The notes under the pieces: generated by a model
Seen by the model: the letters and a program-made list of their open reading frames with translations, nothing else
What the model was told of the DNA's origin: nothing
Database searches by the model: none
Program-made: the position numbers and the translations under genes
Assembly: GCA_963804165.1 (NCBI GenBank)
Contig: CAWDPO010000010.1
Location: 64,001-128,000 of the forward strand
Source of the DNA: an uncultured delta proteobacterium
Lineage (GTDB): Bacteria > Desulfobacterota > Binatia > UBA9968
Reading direction: 5' to 3'
DNA length: 64,000 nucleotides
In this document: positions 1,013 to 8,945 of the stretch, piece by piece
Layout of the letters: each line of letters starts with the position of its first letter
How positions within the stretch are numbered: position 1 is the first letter of the stretch

Positions 1013-2032
1013 ATGAAAAGATCAATTTTGGCGGGTTTTGACACCGTGGCCAGGCTTCTCCTTCTGATTGCAATCATTGCCCTCGTAGCAAAGGCGGCCA
1101 CCGCCGCGGAAACCGGCAAGGCTACGCCATTGCGGCTGGCTTACAGCGCCATCACCGTCAATCAGGCAATTCCATGGATCGCCTACGAAGCCGGCCACTT
1201 CAAAAGAAACGGCCTCGACGTTGAGCTGATCCACGCCAGCAGTATTCTCGCGCTGCAGGCACTCCTCGCGGGCGAAGTCTCGATCGCACAGTCGGTCACC
1301 GATGCCTGCGTCAGTTCCAATCTCAGCGGCGCCGATACGCTCTTTCTTGGCGCGATTCTCGACAAACCGCTCTACAGTTTTATCGTCAATCCAAAAATCA
1401 AAACCCCTTCCGATCTCAAAGGCAAACGCGTCGGTGTCACGCGCATAGGCTCCACTCCCGACGCTCTCGCGCGCGCGATGCTCAAGATGTGGAATCTTGA
1501 TCCCGCTACCGACGTGACGATCGTGCAGCTGAACGAAATGGGTCTATTGGTCCAGGGCTTGGTGAGCGGCGTCATCGACGCCGCGCCGATCTCGATCCCA
1601 AGCAACATTCGCGCGAAAAATCTAGGCTACACTGAGCTCTTCGACATGACCAAGATCGGCAAGACCTACATCACCGGCACCGTGGTCACCCGCAAGCGTT
1701 TTATCGACGGCCAGCGCGATACCGCAAAGCGATTCATGCGCGGCTTCCTCGAAGGCATGAAAACGTACTTGGAAGACGAAAACTTTAGCATCAAGGTTAT
1801 TCAAAAATGGACCCGGGCGAAAAACCGCGATGAGGTGAAGGAGGCCTACGCGCTCCAGGCAAAAAACATGCTGCGCATCCCGCGCACCTCGATCGACGGC
1901 GTCAAGACGATCCTCGAGGGAATGGAAAAACTTCCCGGCGCCAAAACCGCCGATCCGCGCCGCTTCATCGACTCCACGATCCTCGATGAATTGGAAAAAG
2001 AAGGATTCCTGAAAACCTTGTACAAGTCCTGA
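1013..2032 (+). CDS. ABC transporter substrate-binding protein, NMT1/THI5/SsuA family
   Basis: Signal peptide; GHFKRNGLDVEL, IKTPSDLKGKRVGV, ELEKEGF C-terminus. Confidence 0.85.
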   Translation: MKRSILAGFDTVARLLLLIAIIALVAKAATAAETGKATPLRLAYSAITVNQAIPWIAYEAGHFKRNGLDVELIHASSILALQALLAGEVSIAQSVTDACVSSNLSGADTLFLGAILDKPLYSFIVNPKIKTPSDLKGKRVGVTRIGSTPDALARAMLKMWNLDPATDVTIVQLNEMGLLVQGLVSGVIDAAPISIPSNIRAKNLGYTELFDMTKIGKTYITGTVVTRKRFIDGQRDTAKRFMRGFLEGMKTYLEDENFSIKVIQKWTRAKNRDEVKEAYALQAKNMLRIPRTSIDGVKTILEGMEKLPGAKTADPRRFIDSTILDELEKEGFLKTLYKS

Positions 2033-2094
2033 GATCGCAAATGTTCGGGCACGCCAAATCTCCAGAGCGTGGCACAGTCGCGACTGCAGCAGAG

Positions 2095-2175
2095 TGTCAT
2101 TCTGAACGAAGTGAAGAATCTCACTGGTTCACAGTTCTTGAAAGACGAGATCTTCGGCTTCACCTCAGGATGACA
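2095..2175. repeat. REP-like imperfect palindromic intergenic element
   Basis: TGTCATTCTGAACGAAGTGAAGAATCTC (2095-2122) is an imperfect inverted repeat of GAGATCTTCGGCTTCACCTCAGGATGACA (2147-2175). Confidence 0.7.
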
Positions 2176-2213
2176 TTGTGACGCAGTTTTGACGTGAGAT
2201 GGGAGAAGACACC

Positions 2214-3206
2214 ATGCGATTGAAAGTGCCGATCGTTCTGCCATTGCTCTTGCTGACTCTGCTTCTGCCGGAAGCTGCGCTGGCGCAAACGCTTAAAGTT
2301 CCCTACGTCTCGATCTCCGGATTTCAAGCGCCGCTTTATCTCGGCGAGCGCGCCGGTCTGTTCAAGAAGAACCAACTCGAAGCGCAGCTTATCTACATGC
2401 CCGGCGGTTCTTTGATCGTCCAGACTTTGCTTTCCGGCGACGTCGGCGTCGCCAGCCTCGCGCCACCGTCGGCCGTGGCAGCGTGGGTGAAAGGCGCCGA
2501 GCTGGCTCTGGTCGCGGGCGGCATCGAGCGCGCGCTCAACGTGCTGATGGTCAACCCGAAGATCAAAAAACCCGACGACCTCAAAGGCAAACGGGTCGCG
2601 ATCAGCCGCTTCGGCTCGCTCTCCGATGTATCGCTCCGTGACGCTCTGGCGTTTTACAAACTACGGGCGACCCAAGATGTCCAGGTTGCCCAATTGGGCG
2701 GCCTCGGCGAGCGCATGACCGCGCTCACGTCCGGCGTCGTCGACGGCGCTATTTTGAATGTCGATCAAGTGTTTCAGGCAGAGAAGTTGGGTTTTCAAGT
2801 CTTGATCGACTTGCGCAAGTTGCCACTGACCTATTCGACCCAAGGCATTGTCGTCAGCAAAGAATTCCTGCGCGTTCAGCGCTCTGCCGCGAAACGATTC
2901 TTGCGAGTTTATATTGAAGGCATCAAGATTTTTAAGACCGATAAAGAATTCTCGATGGATACTTTGGCTCGTTATATCAAAACCAGCGACCGAGACATTC
3001 TCTCGAAAACCTATGACGTTTATCGGGACGCCTGGGAGAGCGTGCCACTGGTCAGACGCGACGGTATCCAGCAAGCCTTGGACAGCGTTCCAGAAGCCAA
3101 AAACGCCAAGTTGAATCTTGATAACCTAATCGACAACTCTTTGATTCATGAGCTGGAAAAGGAAGGATTTCTCCGAGAGCTTTATCCCGAGGGCGCAAAA
3201 CGATGA
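2214..3206 (+). CDS. ABC transporter substrate-binding protein, NMT1/THI5/SsuA family
   Basis: GGAG RBS before ATG 2214; signal peptide; GLFKKNQLE, IKKPDDLKGKRVAISRFGS; paralog of 1013..2032. Confidence 0.85.
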   Translation: MRLKVPIVLPLLLLTLLLPEAALAQTLKVPYVSISGFQAPLYLGERAGLFKKNQLEAQLIYMPGGSLIVQTLLSGDVGVASLAPPSAVAAWVKGAELALVAGGIERALNVLMVNPKIKKPDDLKGKRVAISRFGSLSDVSLRDALAFYKLRATQDVQVAQLGGLGERMTALTSGVVDGAILNVDQVFQAEKLGFQVLIDLRKLPLTYSTQGIVVSKEFLRVQRSAAKRFLRVYIEGIKIFKTDKEFSMDTLARYIKTSDRDILSKTYDVYRDAWESVPLVRRDGIQQALDSVPEAKNAKLNLDNLIDNSLIHELEKEGFLRELYPEGAKR

Positions 3207-3342
3207 GTGGAGCGAAGCCCAACAGAAGTTTCATGGTCAGGTCGCGCTCCGAGTTGGAGCGTTCGACAGGCTCTTGCGCCGGAAAGCTAAGATAAGTAAT
3301 TTTAATGCCAGAGGTGCGATTCACCGCGTTTCAGGAGTGAAC

Positions 3343-4179
3343 ATGCTAAAAACCACAGGCCTCATTGCCGGTCATTACGAGTGCCGCTCGCTTGCCGACA
3401 CTTTGCCGGTTTTTACCGATCTCGTGGCCATGGAAGTCATCGAGCGCAAGCCGGGTGAAGCGACGCTGAAGCATCCGAACACCGATTGGCGCTTGATTGT
3501 CCACGAAGGCGGGCCGAACGCGCCGGAAAAAGCCTTCGATAATCACTACGGCTTTCGGGTCGGCACGCACGAGGAAGTCGAGGCCGCCTGGAAATACGTC
3601 GAGGCTCACAAAGATAAATACCGGCTGACTAAAATCACCAAACCGCAGAGCGCGCACTTCGCCTACTCGATTTATTTCAACGAGCCCGGCGGCAACACCC
3701 TGGAGATCGAATACTACAATCCCGGCGGCGCGCTGCACGGCCGCTCGCACACCGCCGGTCACTGGGACTCTCCGCTCACCAGCGACCGCTTTCCCGGACG
3801 CGGTTATCTGCCGCAAGCTTTTACCCACGGAACCTTGCAATGTGACAACGTCGAGCGCAGCCGGCGTTTTTACGTCGAGGTTCTGGGATTGGAGATCGCG
3901 GCGGGTTTCAATACGGCGCAATACATCAAACACCCTTCGACGCCGTGGTACATCGTCGTGTTGCAGCGAACTCCACGGCAATACCTGGCTCCGGTGAACC
4001 GCTTCACGCTGCAGATGGCATCGACGGCGGATGTCGAACAAGCCCACCGCGAGTTTGCTGCCAATGGCAAAGAGATCGGCATCGCCGATCTCGGCAGGCT
4101 CGGAAGCACCGACGGCAGGGCGAATTTTATATTCAGCGACCTGGATAAAAACTGGTGGGAGCTGACGAGCGGGGCGTAA
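3343..4179 (+). CDS. Two-domain VOC (glyoxalase/bleomycin resistance/dioxygenase) family protein
   Basis: GGAG RBS before ATG 3343; NHYGF..YFNEPGGNTLEIE and THGTL..FYVEVLGLE..FSDLDKNWWEL motifs. Confidence 0.75.
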   Translation: MLKTTGLIAGHYECRSLADTLPVFTDLVAMEVIERKPGEATLKHPNTDWRLIVHEGGPNAPEKAFDNHYGFRVGTHEEVEAAWKYVEAHKDKYRLTKITKPQSAHFAYSIYFNEPGGNTLEIEYYNPGGALHGRSHTAGHWDSPLTSDRFPGRGYLPQAFTHGTLQCDNVERSRRFYVEVLGLEIAAGFNTAQYIKHPSTPWYIVVLQRTPRQYLAPVNRFTLQMASTADVEQAHREFAANGKEIGIADLGRLGSTDGRANFIFSDLDKNWWELTSGA

Positions 4180-4221
4180 ACCTGGTGCGTCAGCCGTCGT
4201 TATCGTCCAAGCACGTTTTTC

Positions 4222-4536
4222 CTACGTCATTCGCAACAAGATAATCCCCAGCACGACGAGCGCGACGCCGCAAAATATTTTCACGGTCACCGGTTCAGCG
4301 AAAATCACGCTCCCGGCAGCCACGGCCAGGAGCGCCTCCAACCCCAGGACCACCACGTAGCTCGGCCCCAGCGCTTCGTGTTTCATCGCCCATGCTTGAA
4401 CTAACGCGCCGGCGCTGAAAAGTGTCACGAGCCCAAGCGTAGGCAGCAATCGCGTCAATCCTTGGGAATATTTCATGAACGTGCCGCCGGCCACGTACAG
4501 CGCGGCCGCGACGGCATAGAATGCGATCATCTTCAT
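4222..4536 (-). CDS. SMR/DMT family small multidrug-type membrane transporter
   Basis: 104 aa, four hydrophobic helices; MKYSQGLTRLLP and FAEPVT..G..LVVLGIILL typical of SMR. Confidence 0.75.
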   Translation of the reverse strand: MKMIAFYAVAAALYVAGGTFMKYSQGLTRLLPTLGLVTLFSAGALVQAWAMKHEALGPSYVVVLGLEALLAVAAGSVIFAEPVTVKIFCGVALVVLGIILLRMT

Positions 4537-4566
4537 ATTCCGAGTTTACTCCCTGTTATAGGCACT

Positions 4567-4602
4567 AAAAAAAAGGCCCAACCTGGATCACAGATCGGGC
4601 CT
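4567..4602 (-). terminator. Intrinsic terminator after cytochrome c gene
   Basis: Minus strand AGGCCCGATCTG-loop-CAGGTTGGGCCT followed by a T run. Confidence 0.7.
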
Positions 4603-4637
4603 TCTCTTATAGGCGCGTGATGCGTCTTGCTAATCGG

Positions 4638-4994
4638 TCAGTCGAATTTCAGTAACGGAATATCCTTTGCCGCCGCTGACGGCTTGACCGTTAAGAGATA
4701 CGCGTACATATCCGCCAACTCCTGATCGCTGACAAAATCTTTTCGATAAGCCGGCATATCTTGGCGCGGCGTGCGCACCTGAAGGGCGAAGGCCGGGTAC
4801 GCAAGCATTCCCGGCGTTAGTTTCGGTCCGACACCGCGGTCGGCGCCTTGACCGATAGTACCGTGACAGGTGTAGCACATGTATTTCATATAGCTCTGGT
4901 GGCCGCGCTGAGCCGAGCCCGCTGGCGGCGGCTCTTGTGATAACACCGGAGCCGCGACCAACGTTATCAAAACGGTTAGAAAAACAATCCGCAT
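4638..4994 (-). CDS. Monoheme class I cytochrome c
   Basis: Signal peptide MRIVFLTVLITLVAAPVLS; CYTCH heme motif; GPKL, DMPAY (axial Met), SDQELADMYAYL. Confidence 0.85.
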   Translation of the reverse strand: MRIVFLTVLITLVAAPVLSQEPPPAGSAQRGHQSYMKYMCYTCHGTIGQGADRGVGPKLTPGMLAYPAFALQVRTPRQDMPAYRKDFVSDQELADMYAYLLTVKPSAAAKDIPLLKFD

Positions 4995-5007
4995 CGTGAC
5001 TCCTCTC

Positions 5008-6897
5008 TCATCGTCCTTGGGAGACGACATCGATTAGCGCCGGCTCACCGCGCTTGACCACTGCAAGCGCGCGAGAGATTGCCGGACCCATGGCGGCGGG
5101 ATCGGTGATCGGACCGTCTCCATATACACCCATGGATTGCGCCAGTTTGGCAAAATCGACATTGGGATTCTCGATGGTCGTGCCGATGGCCGCGCTATCC
5201 ATACGACGGTTGTGCAACGCGGCCATTTTTTGCAGGTGCATGACTTCCTGGTGATAAGCGCGATTATTATGCACGATCATCAGCATCGGAATTTTGTGGT
5301 GCGCCGCGGTCCAGAGCGCGCCCGGCGCATACATCAAGTCGCCATCGCCTTCGATCGAAACAGTCAAAATACCCTTGTCCCGGTTGGCGAGTGCTGCTCC
5401 GACGGCGGCACCGCTACCGTAGCCTTGACCGGCGCCGCCGGAGCCGCCGATAAAATTATGATACTCGGTAGCCGGCCACAGATTTCGGTTCCACTGCACG
5501 CTGGAAACTGCGAGACACCACTTGTCATTCTTGATCGCGTTGTAGAGCACCGCCGAAAGCCGCGCCGTGCTGCATGGGCTCGCATCCCAACCGACACTGG
5601 CTGCCGAGCGCGCGCGCTCTTTCATCCGGCCGTAGTCTTCGCGCAGCTTCGTCGCGCGATCGGCGATTGTCGCGCGCTGCGCCATACCGCTGGCCTTCTT
5701 GACCGCCTCGATCAGTGCCGGCAGCGTCGCCTGGGCATCGCCAGAGATCGGCAGATCGGACGGCATAAAGCGCTGCATGTCCTGATAGTTCGATTTCGTC
5801 AGCGTGTCGCCGAGCGATATGTGAATAACCTTGACATCGGGTTTAGCCAGGCGGCGATATTCATGGTGCGGGTCGCTGACGGTATTAAATTGGCCCCAGG
5901 GATCGGCAACTTCAAGCAAGAGGGCAACATCGGCTTGGCCGACCAAGGAGCGGCGATCGCCACTGCGACAGAGAAAATGGTTCATGGGAAAATTCATGCG
6001 CCCGCCAATATCAACGACCGGCGCATTCAATGCCTCGGCCAGCTCGACCAGGCGCTTCATGCCTTCTTGGGAGCGACAAGCCCGGTCCGCCAAGATCACC
6101 GGATTTTGCGCCGCCACCAGCATCTTGGCCGCTTCTGAAACTGCGCCGCTGTCGCCTTGGGGCGGAATCGAAAGCGTGAGCTTGGGAATGGTCAGTTTCT
6201 TTTCCTCGTAGATTGATCCTTCGGCCAACACGCCGTCCGCGGTGATCAACACTGGACCCATCGGCACGGTCGTGGCGATCTTGTAGCCACGAATGACCGA
6301 CTCGGCAAAGTGCTGCAGCGATAATGGCTGATCGTCCCACTTGGTAAAGTCACGGAGCAACGCCGCTGGATCCTGCACACAGTGGTACCACTCGACGCCG
6401 GGCCGGCGTTTAGCTGCATCGAGAAAATTGCCGGCAAACATCATGATCGGCACCCGATCGCACCAGGCGTTGTATACCGCCATCGCCGCATGCTGCAGTC
6501 CGACCGTGCCATGCGCCATCATGCCCATCGGCTTGCCTGCTGCCTTGGCGTATCCTTGAGCCATGCCGACCGAGGTCTCTTCGTGCATGCAGGTTAAAAA
6601 CTCGGGCTTTTTATTGCCACCGTAGTTGATGATGGATTCCTGTAGGCTGCGAAAGCTCGACCCCGGATTGGACGCGACGTACTCGATGCCAGTGGCTTTG
6701 ATCACGTCGACCATAAAGTCAGAGCCGGGCCGGCTGATGATCTTATCTCGACTTGGCGCGTTCTCTTTGCCGTCAGAGTTTGACTCGGCGGCCTGTGCCG
6801 GTGTGTTTGCCGCCGCCACTTGTGTCCCGATAACCGCCGCTGCGGTAGCCGCGGCTCCTTTCAGAAACGCACGACGATCAAAAGCGTCTTTGCCCAT
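5008..6897 (-). CDS. Thiamine pyrophosphate-dependent enzyme (ALS/benzoylformate decarboxylase/POX family) with Tat signal peptide
   Basis: DRRAFLKG twin-Arg signal; NPGSSF, HEE catalytic Glu, GDGDLMY...HNN ThDP-binding motif. Confidence 0.85.
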   Translation of the reverse strand: MGKDAFDRRAFLKGAAATAAAVIGTQVAAANTPAQAAESNSDGKENAPSRDKIISRPGSDFMVDVIKATGIEYVASNPGSSFRSLQESIINYGGNKKPEFLTCMHEETSVGMAQGYAKAAGKPMGMMAHGTVGLQHAAMAVYNAWCDRVPIMMFAGNFLDAAKRRPGVEWYHCVQDPAALLRDFTKWDDQPLSLQHFAESVIRGYKIATTVPMGPVLITADGVLAEGSIYEEKKLTIPKLTLSIPPQGDSGAVSEAAKMLVAAQNPVILADRACRSQEGMKRLVELAEALNAPVVDIGGRMNFPMNHFLCRSGDRRSLVGQADVALLLEVADPWGQFNTVSDPHHEYRRLAKPDVKVIHISLGDTLTKSNYQDMQRFMPSDLPISGDAQATLPALIEAVKKASGMAQRATIADRATKLREDYGRMKERARSAASVGWDASPCSTARLSAVLYNAIKNDKWCLAVSSVQWNRNLWPATEYHNFIGGSGGAGQGYGSGAAVGAALANRDKGILTVSIEGDGDLMYAPGALWTAAHHKIPMLMIVHNNRAYHQEVMHLQKMAALHNRRMDSAAIGTTIENPNVDFAKLAQSMGVYGDGPITDPAAMGPAISRALAVVKRGEPALIDVVSQGR

Positions 6898-7051
6898 GAC
6901 GTACCTCCGAAGTTGAAAACTAGCGTCGCTATTGGATCTGGAAGTGAATTACCACCGGACCCGACGGTCCCCAAGTTGGGATAGACGGTAGCCGAAACCA
7001 TGCTTTGCTGTCAACGGATAATTTGACACGGATAATTTGACGCGAGTGCCC

Positions 7052-7733
7052 ATGTTTGAAGGATTGACTCGCCGTTTTCGCCGATCATTTGGGCATCTTG
7101 TGTTTGGCGCGTTGGCCATCACATTTGTCCTGAATAGCGTGGAATGGGCACACGCCTTCACGGTCTTGGAGAACTTCGAGCGATATGATCCTAGCGGCTT
7201 TCCATTCAAGTGGCGCAGCCGCAGTAACGGGCGCGCAAGATTTACCGGGTTGACGCCGAGAACGGCAACCGCTTTCTGCGCGCCCAAGCCGACAAGCAAG
7301 GAGTCCAGATAGGCCTGAAATATGAGTTCGATCCCAGGCAGCAGCGCCGCTTAATCTGGCGCTGGCGGGTTCACCATTTGCTAGCGGACGCGATGAGCGC
7401 TCGGCTGAAAAACACGATGCCGCCGCCCAGGTTTACGTCGTATTCGACAATCAATACTGGCCGCGAGTGATTAAATACGTCTGGAGCGCGGCATTGCCGG
7501 TCGGCGCGCGTTTCACCAATCCGCTTTACAACCGTGGCAGAGTGGTCGTGTTACGCAGCAGTGCGACTGCCAAAAACCAATGGTACGACGAAGAGGTTAA
7601 TTTCCTTGATGATTACCGGAGATTCTTCGGTGCCGAACCCGGAAAAGTCCAGGGCATCGGTATCTTGACCAGTGCCGACTCCACCACAAACGTGGCAGCA
7701 GCGAACTACGACGACTTCGTGCTCCTCCCGTAG
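7052..7733 (+). pseudogene. DUF3047-like exported protein, frameshifted (probably assembly indels)
   Basis: Signal peptide in 7037..7312; shifted frames read WRWRV, DAAAQVYVVF, IKYVWS, GIGILTSADST..ANYDDF. Confidence 0.6.
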
Positions 7734-7928: not shown

Positions 7929-8945
7929 ATGGAATTGCACCTAAGCCAACACCAATACGTGCAGCGAGACACGGGACGCATCTGCTCAGAGCATCCATTC
8001 GGCGATTGGATTGTGAACTATGTTTATTCCCGCAAGCGTGAATACGCGGCGTTACTCTATCACCTCTTAGGGAGTCAATGGATGAGCGGACTACTCGGTT
8101 GGGTGAATTACGACTTTCCGCTCGGTCAAAATATTTTCGGAATACAGCGCTTCATGCGAAACAGCAGCATCGATTTAGCCGAATGCTTGGACAAACTTGA
8201 AACGCTCAACACCGCGAGGAAAGTCTTTGAGCGAAAAATTCGCTACTGGCAGCGCCGACCGATGACTGACAACCCGGCGGCAATCGTTTGCCCGGCGGAT
8301 TCGCGCGTCCTCATCGGCTCTCTGAAAGAAACTTCCTGTCTATTTCTAAAGGAAAAATTCTTTTCCATCGAGGAGCTGCTTGGCTCGACCAAGGCTCACT
8401 GGCTCAAAGCATTTCGCGGCGGCGATTTTGTGATCTGCAGACTCACCCCAGAAAAATATCACTATAATCATACTCCGGTGGCAGGAATCGTCCGTGATTT
8501 TTACGAATGCGACGGCCACTTTCACTCTTGCAATCCCGGCTCGATCGTTAGATTGGCGACGCCGTACTCCAAAAACAATCGGGTCGTCACGGTAATCGAC
8601 ACCGATGTCGACGGCGGCACCCGCGTAGGATTGTCGTCATGGTGGAAGTCGTCGCCTTGATGATCGGCGACGTCGCCCAGTCTTACAGCCGTTCCGAATA
8701 TAGCAATCCGCAGCCTGTATCTGTGGGAATGTTTCTCCATCGCGGCTGTCCCAAAAGCGTTTTTCGTCCGGGCAGCAGCACCACCGTATTGCTGTTTCAA
8801 GAAAACCACGTGATTTTTTCCGAAGACCTGATTCGTAATCTATACCGCACCGATTGTGAGCCGTTATTCGCAAGGACTGGGCAGGCCGTTGGCCGAGACC
8901 GACACAAAAGTCCGCTCTACGAAGAGTAAAGGAGGGCCCGCATGA
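7929..8945 (+). CDS. psd: Phosphatidylserine decarboxylase proenzyme (apparent frameshifts near 8630 and 8853)
   Basis: PADSR, RLTPEKYHYNHTPV, NNRVV, and FRPGSST cleavage motif in second frame; corrected frame ends at TGA 8943-8945 overlapping next ATG. Confidence 0.75.

Follow-up and report, generated by a model that had tools for sequence, protein, structure and literature searches.

Can an enzyme that depends on thiamine diphosphate (ThDP) work outside the cytoplasm and pass electrons to a cytochrome c of its own? The question is raised by a two-gene locus in a 64,000-nucleotide stretch of DNA from an uncultured delta proteobacterium (contig CAWDPO010000010.1, positions 64,001 to 128,000), referred to throughout as the window, where a gene for a ThDP enzyme with a twin-arginine leader (P0001) is followed on the same strand by a gene for a small monohaem cytochrome c (P0002). 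To our knowledge all known ThDP enzymes are cytoplasmic or located in organelles, and the known outlets for their electrons are lipoamide, flavin and iron-sulfur clusters. The original prediction for this locus, made from the sequence alone, was of a periplasmic system in which an enzyme of the ALS/POX family oxidises a 2-oxoacid or an aldehyde via the ThDP enamine and hands the electrons to cytochrome c, and it named no characterised example; our literature searches agree, in that neither an exported ThDP enzyme nor a ThDP-cytochrome c pair was found in the sources covered, a scope outside which subscription journals and supplements lay. We put somewhat better than even odds on the locus specifying a periplasmic ThDP:cytochrome c oxidoreductase that works without flavin, for which we infer both the oxidative chemistry and the class of substrate.

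The leader and the gene pair

The N-terminus of the enzyme reads MGKDAFDRRAFLKGAAATAAAVIGTQVAAANTPAQA followed by AESN, with an arginine pair at residues 8–9, a stretch of mild hydrophobicity (highest Kyte-Doolittle mean over 12 residues, 1.59) and AQA at residues 34–36. These features agree with those of proteins exported by twin-arginine translocation (Tat), i.e. an RR consensus (S/T-R-R-x-F-L-K), a mild hydrophobic region (h-region) and an AxA site. In the AlphaFold2 model the predicted local distance difference test (pLDDT) score is below 50 at residues 22–49, and about 20 residues past AQA are modelled as disordered. A scan of one genome per species returned 594 relatives, leaderless sisters included, and the locus counts given here cover the best 80 loci only. 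At 79 of these 80 an RR leader stands in frame upstream of the enzyme core, and the lone miss (L035) has an apparently damaged 5′ end. Both R8 and R9 are unchanged in ten diverse relatives and in 21 of 21 members of the leader-bearing clade, and RR-x-F-L/I or a close variant is present in all nine full-length proteins of 44–56% identity in a representative library. The RR-x-F-L motif and the mildly hydrophobic stretch persist to about 50% identity while the linker behind them varies freely; relatives of 40% identity or less begin to align only at query residues 55–58 and have no leader. Many homologues bear PF10518 in precomputed annotation, one source in a clustered-protein search labels its homologue ‘twin-arginine translocation signal domain-containing protein’, and the genome itself has two TatC genes (239.5 and 228.6 bits). 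As a side observation, the RR leader of the orthologue in another genome of the same genus (G218; L097, about 3640–3801) is out of frame with the core, the frameshift lying within the leader in that assembly.

The case for Tat export is drawn from this conserved RR motif and not from the Pfam TAT_signal model, which scores 16.6 bits against a cut-off of 22.7. That low score, together with an AxA site in just 14 of the 21 clade leaders, speaks for a non-working export signal, with the enzyme either cytoplasmic or anchored by an uncleaved leader and the adjacency of the cytochrome gene reflecting regulation or chance linkage. We regard this as very improbable. First, RR-x-F-L and the hydrophobic stretch are kept at 79 of 80 loci while the linker behind them drifts, and PF10518 is annotated on many of the homologues. 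Second, the leaderless sisters are without these 55 residues entirely. Third, partnership with an exported cytochrome makes sense outside the cytoplasm only. Export of the enzyme by Tat, predicted from these features, is well supported.

The second gene begins close behind the first: the TGA stop of the ThDP gene is followed by 13 bases that include GAGAGGAG and then by the cytochrome ATG at position 4994, from which the protein begins MRIVFL (a longer cytochrome open reading frame [ORF], from 5030 and in overlap with the ThDP gene, is unlikely to be used). The product matches the Pfam family Cytochrome_CBB3 (PF13442) with 39.3 bits against a cut-off of 27, and its leader is strongly hydrophobic, of the Sec type (2.43, against 1.58 for the Tat leaders). 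Among 70 homologues C40, C43 and H44 are present in all and M80 in 69, with Met80-Pro81 conserved, and the C-terminal P-L-L tail is conserved as well (P113 in 60 and L115 in 67). The structural model of the cytochrome (pLDDT 76) is c6-like and weakly matches cytochromes c6 and PchC in a structure comparison with the Protein Data Bank (PDB), where no match has an E-value of 0.001 or less. The genome also holds CcmF- and CcmC-like matches to PF01578 (125.3 and 107.8 bits) and genes for haem-copper oxidases (COX1).

The pairing of the two genes extends far beyond this genome. Thousands of relatives of the enzyme are present among clustered proteins, the closest coming from soil metagenomes and from metagenome-assembled genomes named Binatia or Deltaproteobacteria. 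A homologue of the cytochrome lies directly downstream on the same strand at 54 of the 80 loci; at 12 it is on the opposite strand no more than 4 kb away, often convergent and at a distance of just 19–86 bases, and at two it is elsewhere in the flank. By phylum, 48 of the loci are from Acidobacteriota and 25 from Pseudomonadota, with single loci in Binatota, Thermodesulfobacteriota, Rokuibacteriota, Gemmatimonadota and Actinomycetota (this one on a possibly misbinned contig of 3.8 kb) and two unlabelled. When the neighbours of all 80 loci were clustered, with overlapping frames removed, no third conserved gene was found: the top cluster, at 6 of 80, is an antisense artefact, and the others occur at no more than four. 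The ThDP and cytochrome distances co-vary across 68 loci (Mantel r 0.79, with none of 999 permutations as high), as would be seen if the two genes are inherited together, though common ancestry by itself adds to such a correlation. The nine Pseudomonadota loci, among 25, at which the cytochrome is on the opposite strand (L013, L016, L017, L019, L021–L023, L028 and L042) are linked and not co-transcribed.

Within the genus the module is patchy. A DNA search of 18 genomes located the whole module in three (G218, G211 and G207) and a copy split at contig ends in a fourth (G201), whereas G205 gave paralog-level matches only; in 201 genomes sampled from the phylum the cytochrome profile matched only three at an E-value of 1e-12, namely the genome studied here and two domains of larger ORFs, and thus brought no additional pairs to light. 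Hits this few, in the genus and in the phylum, are as a mobile two-gene cassette would give.

The genome studied here (7.5 Mb, 81% complete) provides an internal comparison, as its family of ThDP enzymes is unusually large, with 33 matches; 21 of them are ORFs no shorter than 500 aa, and contigs C46 and C17 hold several copies in fragments. Among the 21, an ORF with a CxxCH motif lies within 1 kb only next to the gene for P0001 and next to the gene that ends a tandem array on contig C14, and none of the 18 leaderless paralogs in this genome has such a neighbour. The restriction of CxxCH neighbours to leader-bearing paralogs argues that the pairing exceeds chance. The C14 array (87083–93431, or 1084–7432 of locus L104, outside the window) consists of three tandem ThDP paralogs with RR leaders (SRRGFL/SRRSFL), the first split by a frameshift; the proteins are 26–29% identical to P0001 and are placed at a distance from it in the tree. 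The array's cytochrome, again monohaem, differs in type, with CGTCH as its haem motif and a weak match to Dehyd-heme_bind (23.1 bits, under the 25.2 cut-off). Because the array is unrelated in the tree and has its own, different cytochrome, leader and cytochrome seem to have been assembled at least twice.

Taken with the coordinates in Table 1, these results bear out the layout that had been predicted: the twin-arginine signal (DRRAFLKG, a hydrophobic stretch and AQA), the secreted CYTCH cytochrome 13 nt behind the ThDP gene, the terminator after it, and the two-gene system as such, with the cytochrome adjacent on the same strand at 54 loci, nearby at 14 more, and no other neighbour conserved. 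The two-gene module is thus well supported as a unit predicted from comparative sequence data.

Table 1. Features of the ThDP enzyme-cytochrome c operon and its terminator, in window coordinates
Feature	Position	Strand	Basis
ThDP-dependent enzyme P0001, 629 aa, BFDC-like / PRK08327-like, without FAD motifs	5008..6897	minus	translation, Pfam, NCBIfam, AlphaFold2, Foldseek
Putative twin-arginine leader, residues 1–36 (DRRAFLKG ... AQA), then disordered linker to about residue 55	6790..6897	minus	translation
ThDP/Mg-binding motif GDG...NN, residues 517–545 (G517-D518-G519...N544-N545)	5263..5349	minus	translation and alignment
Helix and loop directly after the ThDP motif, residues 547–570; predicted cytochrome docking face	5188..5259	minus	clade-specific positions, complex-model contacts
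13-nt spacer with Shine-Dalgarno-like GAGAGGAG	4995..5007	minus	sequence
Monohaem class I cytochrome c, 118-aa precursor, Sec-type leader (MRIVFLTVLITLVAAPVLSQ)	4638..4994	minus	translation, Pfam
Haem-attachment motif CYTCH, residues 40–44	4863..4877	minus	translation
Intrinsic terminator, GC-rich hairpin and U8	4567..4601	minus	-31.3 kcal/mol, z -5.1

Family placement and the question of a flavin

The enzyme carries the three Pfam domains TPP_enzyme_N, _M and _C (E-values 7e-21, 5e-13 and 3e-22), all above their gathering scores (79.7, 74.6 and 49.3 bits against 21.9, 26.8 and 30.4), and its AlphaFold2 model has a pLDDT of 90.9. The HEE and GDG..NN motifs are intact in the translation, as had been predicted; the HEE motif is H105-E106-E107, with E106 as the cofactor-activating glutamate, and E106, D518, G519 and N545 are unchanged across 81 aligned sequences.

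The best NCBIfam match is NF006203 (PRK08327), over residues 55–625, with 269.5 bits against a cut-off of 456; the benzoylformate decarboxylase (BFDC) model NF005485 gives 155.8 against 493, the pyruvate oxidase model NF006377 gives 81.7 against 742, and the models for acetohydroxyacid synthase (AHAS), Xsc and glyoxylate carboligase are all far under their cut-offs. The ESM Atlas returned generic names only. By sequence, the solved structures closest to the enzyme are those of benzoylformate decarboxylases (E-value 3.5e-26), and the top Foldseek matches of the model are 6qsi, 8x3x, 4q9d and 1bfd (E-value about 4e-34; template-modelling [TM] score on target 0.83–0.85). The fold matches are at about 20% identity and about equal for 4-hydroxybenzoylformate decarboxylase, HKA synthase, an M. 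smegmatis BFDC-like protein, catabolic ALS, glyoxylate carboligase and benzaldehyde lyase. Of the original label, therefore, the ThDP decarboxylase type stands, with its TPP_enzyme_N/M/C domains, and the assignment to ALS/POX gives way to an uncharacterised BFDC-like group near PRK08327; P0001 lacks the motifs of AHAS for flavin adenine dinucleotide (FAD).

In an IQ-TREE phylogeny of 44 rows all 14 leader-bearing rows fall on one branch (SH-aLRT 100) that is nested among leaderless proteins, and a FastTree phylogeny of 101 rows agrees on this clade, its three unlabelled members being N-terminally truncated gene calls. The comparison of these sequences shows a single origin for the leader-bearing clade, which sits within uncharacterised leaderless BFDC-like proteins of 31–40% identity. 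Outside the leader, 14 positions set the clade apart: M62, V65, T102, D176, F197, G248, N370, H543, H549, Q550, E551, M553, Q556 and M558. Half of them are in the helix just past the NN of the ThDP motif, and residues 547–570 include H549, Q550, E551, M553, Q556 and M558; by alignment with BFDC this helix would line the substrate pocket. Relative to the PRK08327 group, a leaderless and uncharacterised ‘thiamine pyrophosphate-requiring protein’, the clade has gained the leader, the cytochrome partner and its own residues at 543–558.

The likeness to BFDC extends to the active site. BFDC/MdlC (1bfd, 6qsi, 4q9d), benzaldehyde lyase and the HKA synthase BbmA share with P0001 the three-domain ThDP fold, equivalents of S26/E47/H70/H281 and the lack of FAD motifs, while P0001 differs from them in its identity of only about 20%, its Tat leader and its dedicated cytochrome c partner. 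In a HMMER alignment to 9v6f, residues S80, E106, H129 and H307 align with S26, E47, H70 and H281 of BFDC, and H129 and H307 are at least 90% conserved among the 81 sequences. We take S26, H70 and H281 to have catalytic roles in BFDC, and A460/L461 to form a hydrophobic pocket for the phenyl ring. The positions of G459/A460/L461 are occupied in the leader clade by H549/Q550/E551, and it is because of this replacement of G-A-L by H-Q-E that an aromatic substrate appears unlikely and a small or polar one is suggested.

If the substrate is oxidised, the electrons could in principle travel to the cytochrome by way of a bound flavin, as in pyruvate oxidase/PoxB, or by some other cofactor that the sequence does not reveal. 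In favour of this, the protein has the middle domain TPP_enzyme_M, and Foldseek also matches the FAD-containing AHAS, glyoxylate carboligase and CDH (TM 0.75–0.78). The motifs of that middle domain point the other way. An AHAS-like paralog in the same genome has PMLYIGGGA (the glycine loop) and GARFDDRV (the RFDDR-type motif), both of which we take to be linked to FAD binding in AHAS, whereas the clade of P0001 has NPVILADRA and LEVADPWG instead. Because these motifs are replaced across the whole clade the enzyme is predicted to be flavin-free, and its top sequence and fold matches are to the flavin-free BFDC, HKA synthase and benzaldehyde lyase. We consider a flavin or other hidden relay improbable.

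The predicted complex and the proposed reaction

The original prediction had also pointed to modelling of the enzyme-cytochrome complex as a check. The complex was modelled from enzyme residues 50–629, the mature cytochrome and one haem, with a separate alignment for each protein, and the runs scored 0.74, 0.74 and 0.73, while the highest score among three controls was 0.00. The mark used for such models is reached by 58 of 80 solved complexes and by 2 of 110 mismatched pairs, counts that are rough guides here, where our own alignments were used and a haem was included. The runs share at least 94% of their contacts, and the pLDDT of the partner is at least 87. In the model, cytochrome residues 41–43 (within CxxCH) and 81–84 (the Met80 loop) touch enzyme residues 547–570, so that CxxCH lies beside the helix that follows the ThDP motif; the closest pairs (enzyme:cytochrome) are 553:42, 553:43 and 560:82. 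Elsewhere the P-L-L tail of the cytochrome meets a patch of the enzyme at 430–450, around the invariant W437. It seems unlikely that the model simply recalls a known complex, since no ThDP-cytochrome complex was found among the solved structures and the best PDB sequence match of the cytochrome has an E-value of 0.001. The complex model supports the predicted binding of the two proteins.

Conservation at the modelled interface differs between the leader-bearing and the leaderless proteins. In ten diverse leader-bearing sequences the 49 interface positions have a conservation of 0.60, against 0.63 elsewhere in the protein; in 60 leaderless sisters the same positions are more variable (0.34 against 0.50 elsewhere, p 3e-6), and the gain in conservation from the leaderless proteins to the leader clade is bigger at the interface (0.26 against 0.13, p 9e-4).

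The reaction we propose would run as follows. The ThDP enzyme would fold and load ThDP and Mg in the cytoplasm and then be exported by Tat, and the apocytochrome would be exported by Sec and receive its haem from the Ccm system. In the periplasm a carbonyl substrate would bind at C2 of ThDP; a 2-oxoacid whose side chain is small or polar is the likeliest candidate, an aldehyde a possible one. Decarboxylation would give the hydroxyalkyl-ThDP enamine, which would not be protonated but would lose two electrons, one at a time, to the haem of the docked cytochrome c. Hydrolysis of the acyl-ThDP would then release the carboxylate, and the reduced cytochrome would pass its electrons to a terminal (haem-copper) oxidase, with no flavin or iron-sulfur relay. 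In favour of such chemistry, one-electron acceptors oxidise the hydroxyalkyl-ThDP intermediate of PFOR, and ferricyanide does the same in decarboxylases and transketolase. Of the periplasmic enzyme that the original prediction had envisaged, export and pairing are now backed by the counts across loci, and the oxidation of a 2-oxoacid or aldehyde through the enamine keeps the standing of a proposal.

Several points weigh against this proposal, beside the TAT_signal score and the incomplete AxA site given above. First, we know of no precedent for direct transfer from ThDP to haem, and in non-oxidative decarboxylases the BFDC-type histidine pair serves protonation of the enamine, so that plain decarboxylation is possible. 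Second, only 3 of the 14 clade-specific positions are interface contacts (hypergeometric p 0.11). Third, the complex was modelled with an enzyme monomer, whereas the fold works as a dimer with its active site between the subunits, and the docking face could be occluded. Fourth, the cytochrome homologue is missing at 9 of the 77 loci with enough flank (three of the 80 contigs end too early), no common replacement gene was found among the neighbours of these nine, and the 12 loci with the cytochrome on the opposite strand mean that co-transcription of the pair is not universal. Finally, the gene context at the 80 loci and around the paralogs in this genome gave no clue to the substrate, and the neighbours of two leaderless paralogs in this genome indicate no pathway.

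The main alternative is accordingly a periplasmic enzyme that does not oxidise at all, i.e. a decarboxylase, lyase or carboligase of the BFDC/benzaldehyde-lyase kind, whose neighbouring cytochrome serves another dehydrogenase (for example one oxidising the aldehyde product) or has a structural role. It is kept alive by the histidine pair and the missing precedent: S80, H129 and H307 match the S26/H70/H281 set of non-oxidative decarboxylation in BFDC, and there is neither a flavin nor an iron-sulfur relay. Periplasmic dehydrogenases do lie near a few loci (a molybdenum hydroxylase at four of the 80 and a PQQ dehydrogenase at two), yet only the ThDP gene and the cytochrome gene are conserved and no other dehydrogenase exceeds four loci. 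Moreover, leaderless sisters with the same histidine pair never stand beside a cytochrome in this genome, the complex model sets the haem motif by the ThDP motif where the controls score 0.00, and the interface is constrained in the leader clade only. We therefore consider the non-oxidative alternative unlikely, if less so than a hidden flavin relay, and favour direct oxidation by the docked cytochrome.

Several known systems are partly like the proposed oxidoreductase. PoxB resembles the proposal in outline, decarboxylating its substrate oxidatively at ThDP and feeding the electrons into the respiratory chain, but it is cytoplasmic or peripheral, contains FAD and reduces quinone, whereas P0001 has no FAD motifs, a periplasmic leader and a c-type cytochrome as its putative acceptor. 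Pyruvate:ferredoxin oxidoreductase (PFOR) and oxalate oxidoreductase (OOR) carry out, as the proposed enzyme would, a flavin-free one-electron oxidation of hydroxyalkyl-ThDP by a metal centre; they belong to another ThDP fold family, contain iron-sulfur clusters, are cytoplasmic and are homologous to P0001 at the ThDP-binding core only. In PchCF (p-cresol methylhydroxylase), FccAB (flavocytochrome c) and SorAB (sulfite dehydrogenase), a cofactor-loaded subunit is joined to its own small class I cytochrome c, with flavin or molybdenum as the catalytic cofactor where ThDP would serve here, and the model of the window cytochrome is weakly like PchC (1wve_C and 1diq_C; TM on target 0.67–0.68, E-value about 0.1–0.2). 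The nearest functional analogues would be PoxB and PFOR, and the closest architecture that of periplasmic enzyme-cytochrome pairs such as PchCF.

Neighbouring genes, cultured carriers and biological meaning

The terminator hairpin behind the cytochrome gene (4601..4567) folds better than all of 200 shuffled sequences; a consensus terminator scan did not pick it up, its loop being too long. The next gene past it, at 4536..4222, encodes an SMR transporter. On the other side, about 1 kb upstream of the operon holds only gene remnants (7037–7733 and 7929–8926, both on the plus strand), among them an 88-aa ORF that matches just the last 83 positions of DUF3047 and a phosphatidylserine-decarboxylase-like gene whose reading frame is divided between two overlapping ORFs; such remnants are pseudogenes or else reflect frameshifts in the assembly. 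NMT1/SsuA-like solute-binding proteins are encoded 2–4 kb from the module, at 1013–2032 and 2199–3206 on the plus strand, and a gene of the same kind adjoins the closest leaderless paralog (42% identity) in this genome, at C46 229796–230788, a recurrence that chance could explain, since the genome has many genes of this type. A VOC/glyoxalase-family gene in the window (3148–4179) was considered as a link to the module and dropped, having no leader and resembling only weakly (E-value 3e-6 over 90 aa) a VOC protein with a Tat leader that is present at three loci. At other loci, genes named by eye and lying near the module include a Tat-leader molybdenum hydroxylase (IorB-like, about 870 aa) at L012, L030, L038 and L043, and a PQQ-type propeller dehydrogenase at L045 and L054.

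Three cultured bacteria carry the module. On plasmid p4 of Burkholderia sp. SFA1 (L091, 5860–8423) the leader of the ThDP gene includes TARRTFL, and the next gene, annotated as hypothetical, encodes a dihaem cytochrome; a plasmid of Novosphingobium sp. KACC 22771 (L092, 5761–10881) has a ThDP gene followed by two cytochromes c and a TonB-dependent receptor, and Caballeronia zhejiangensis is a carrier by protein match only. With these strains in culture, the question of what the enzyme oxidises, and how, is directly testable.

We give about even chances to the broader claim that these proteins represent a first class of periplasmic ThDP enzymes, flavin-free, in which a c-type haem docked by the ThDP motif takes electrons directly from hydroxyalkyl-ThDP, and which has apparently arisen at least twice. 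Uncultured Acidobacteriota and Betaproteobacteria of soil and freshwater commonly carry the module, so its substrate may bear on how small organic acids are turned over. If the broader claim is true, ThDP would be a new cofactor for periplasmic respiration and the haem a new type of acceptor for ThDP chemistry, and soil bacteria from many phyla would be able to respire an extracellular 2-oxoacid or aldehyde by means of one enzyme, without taking it up.

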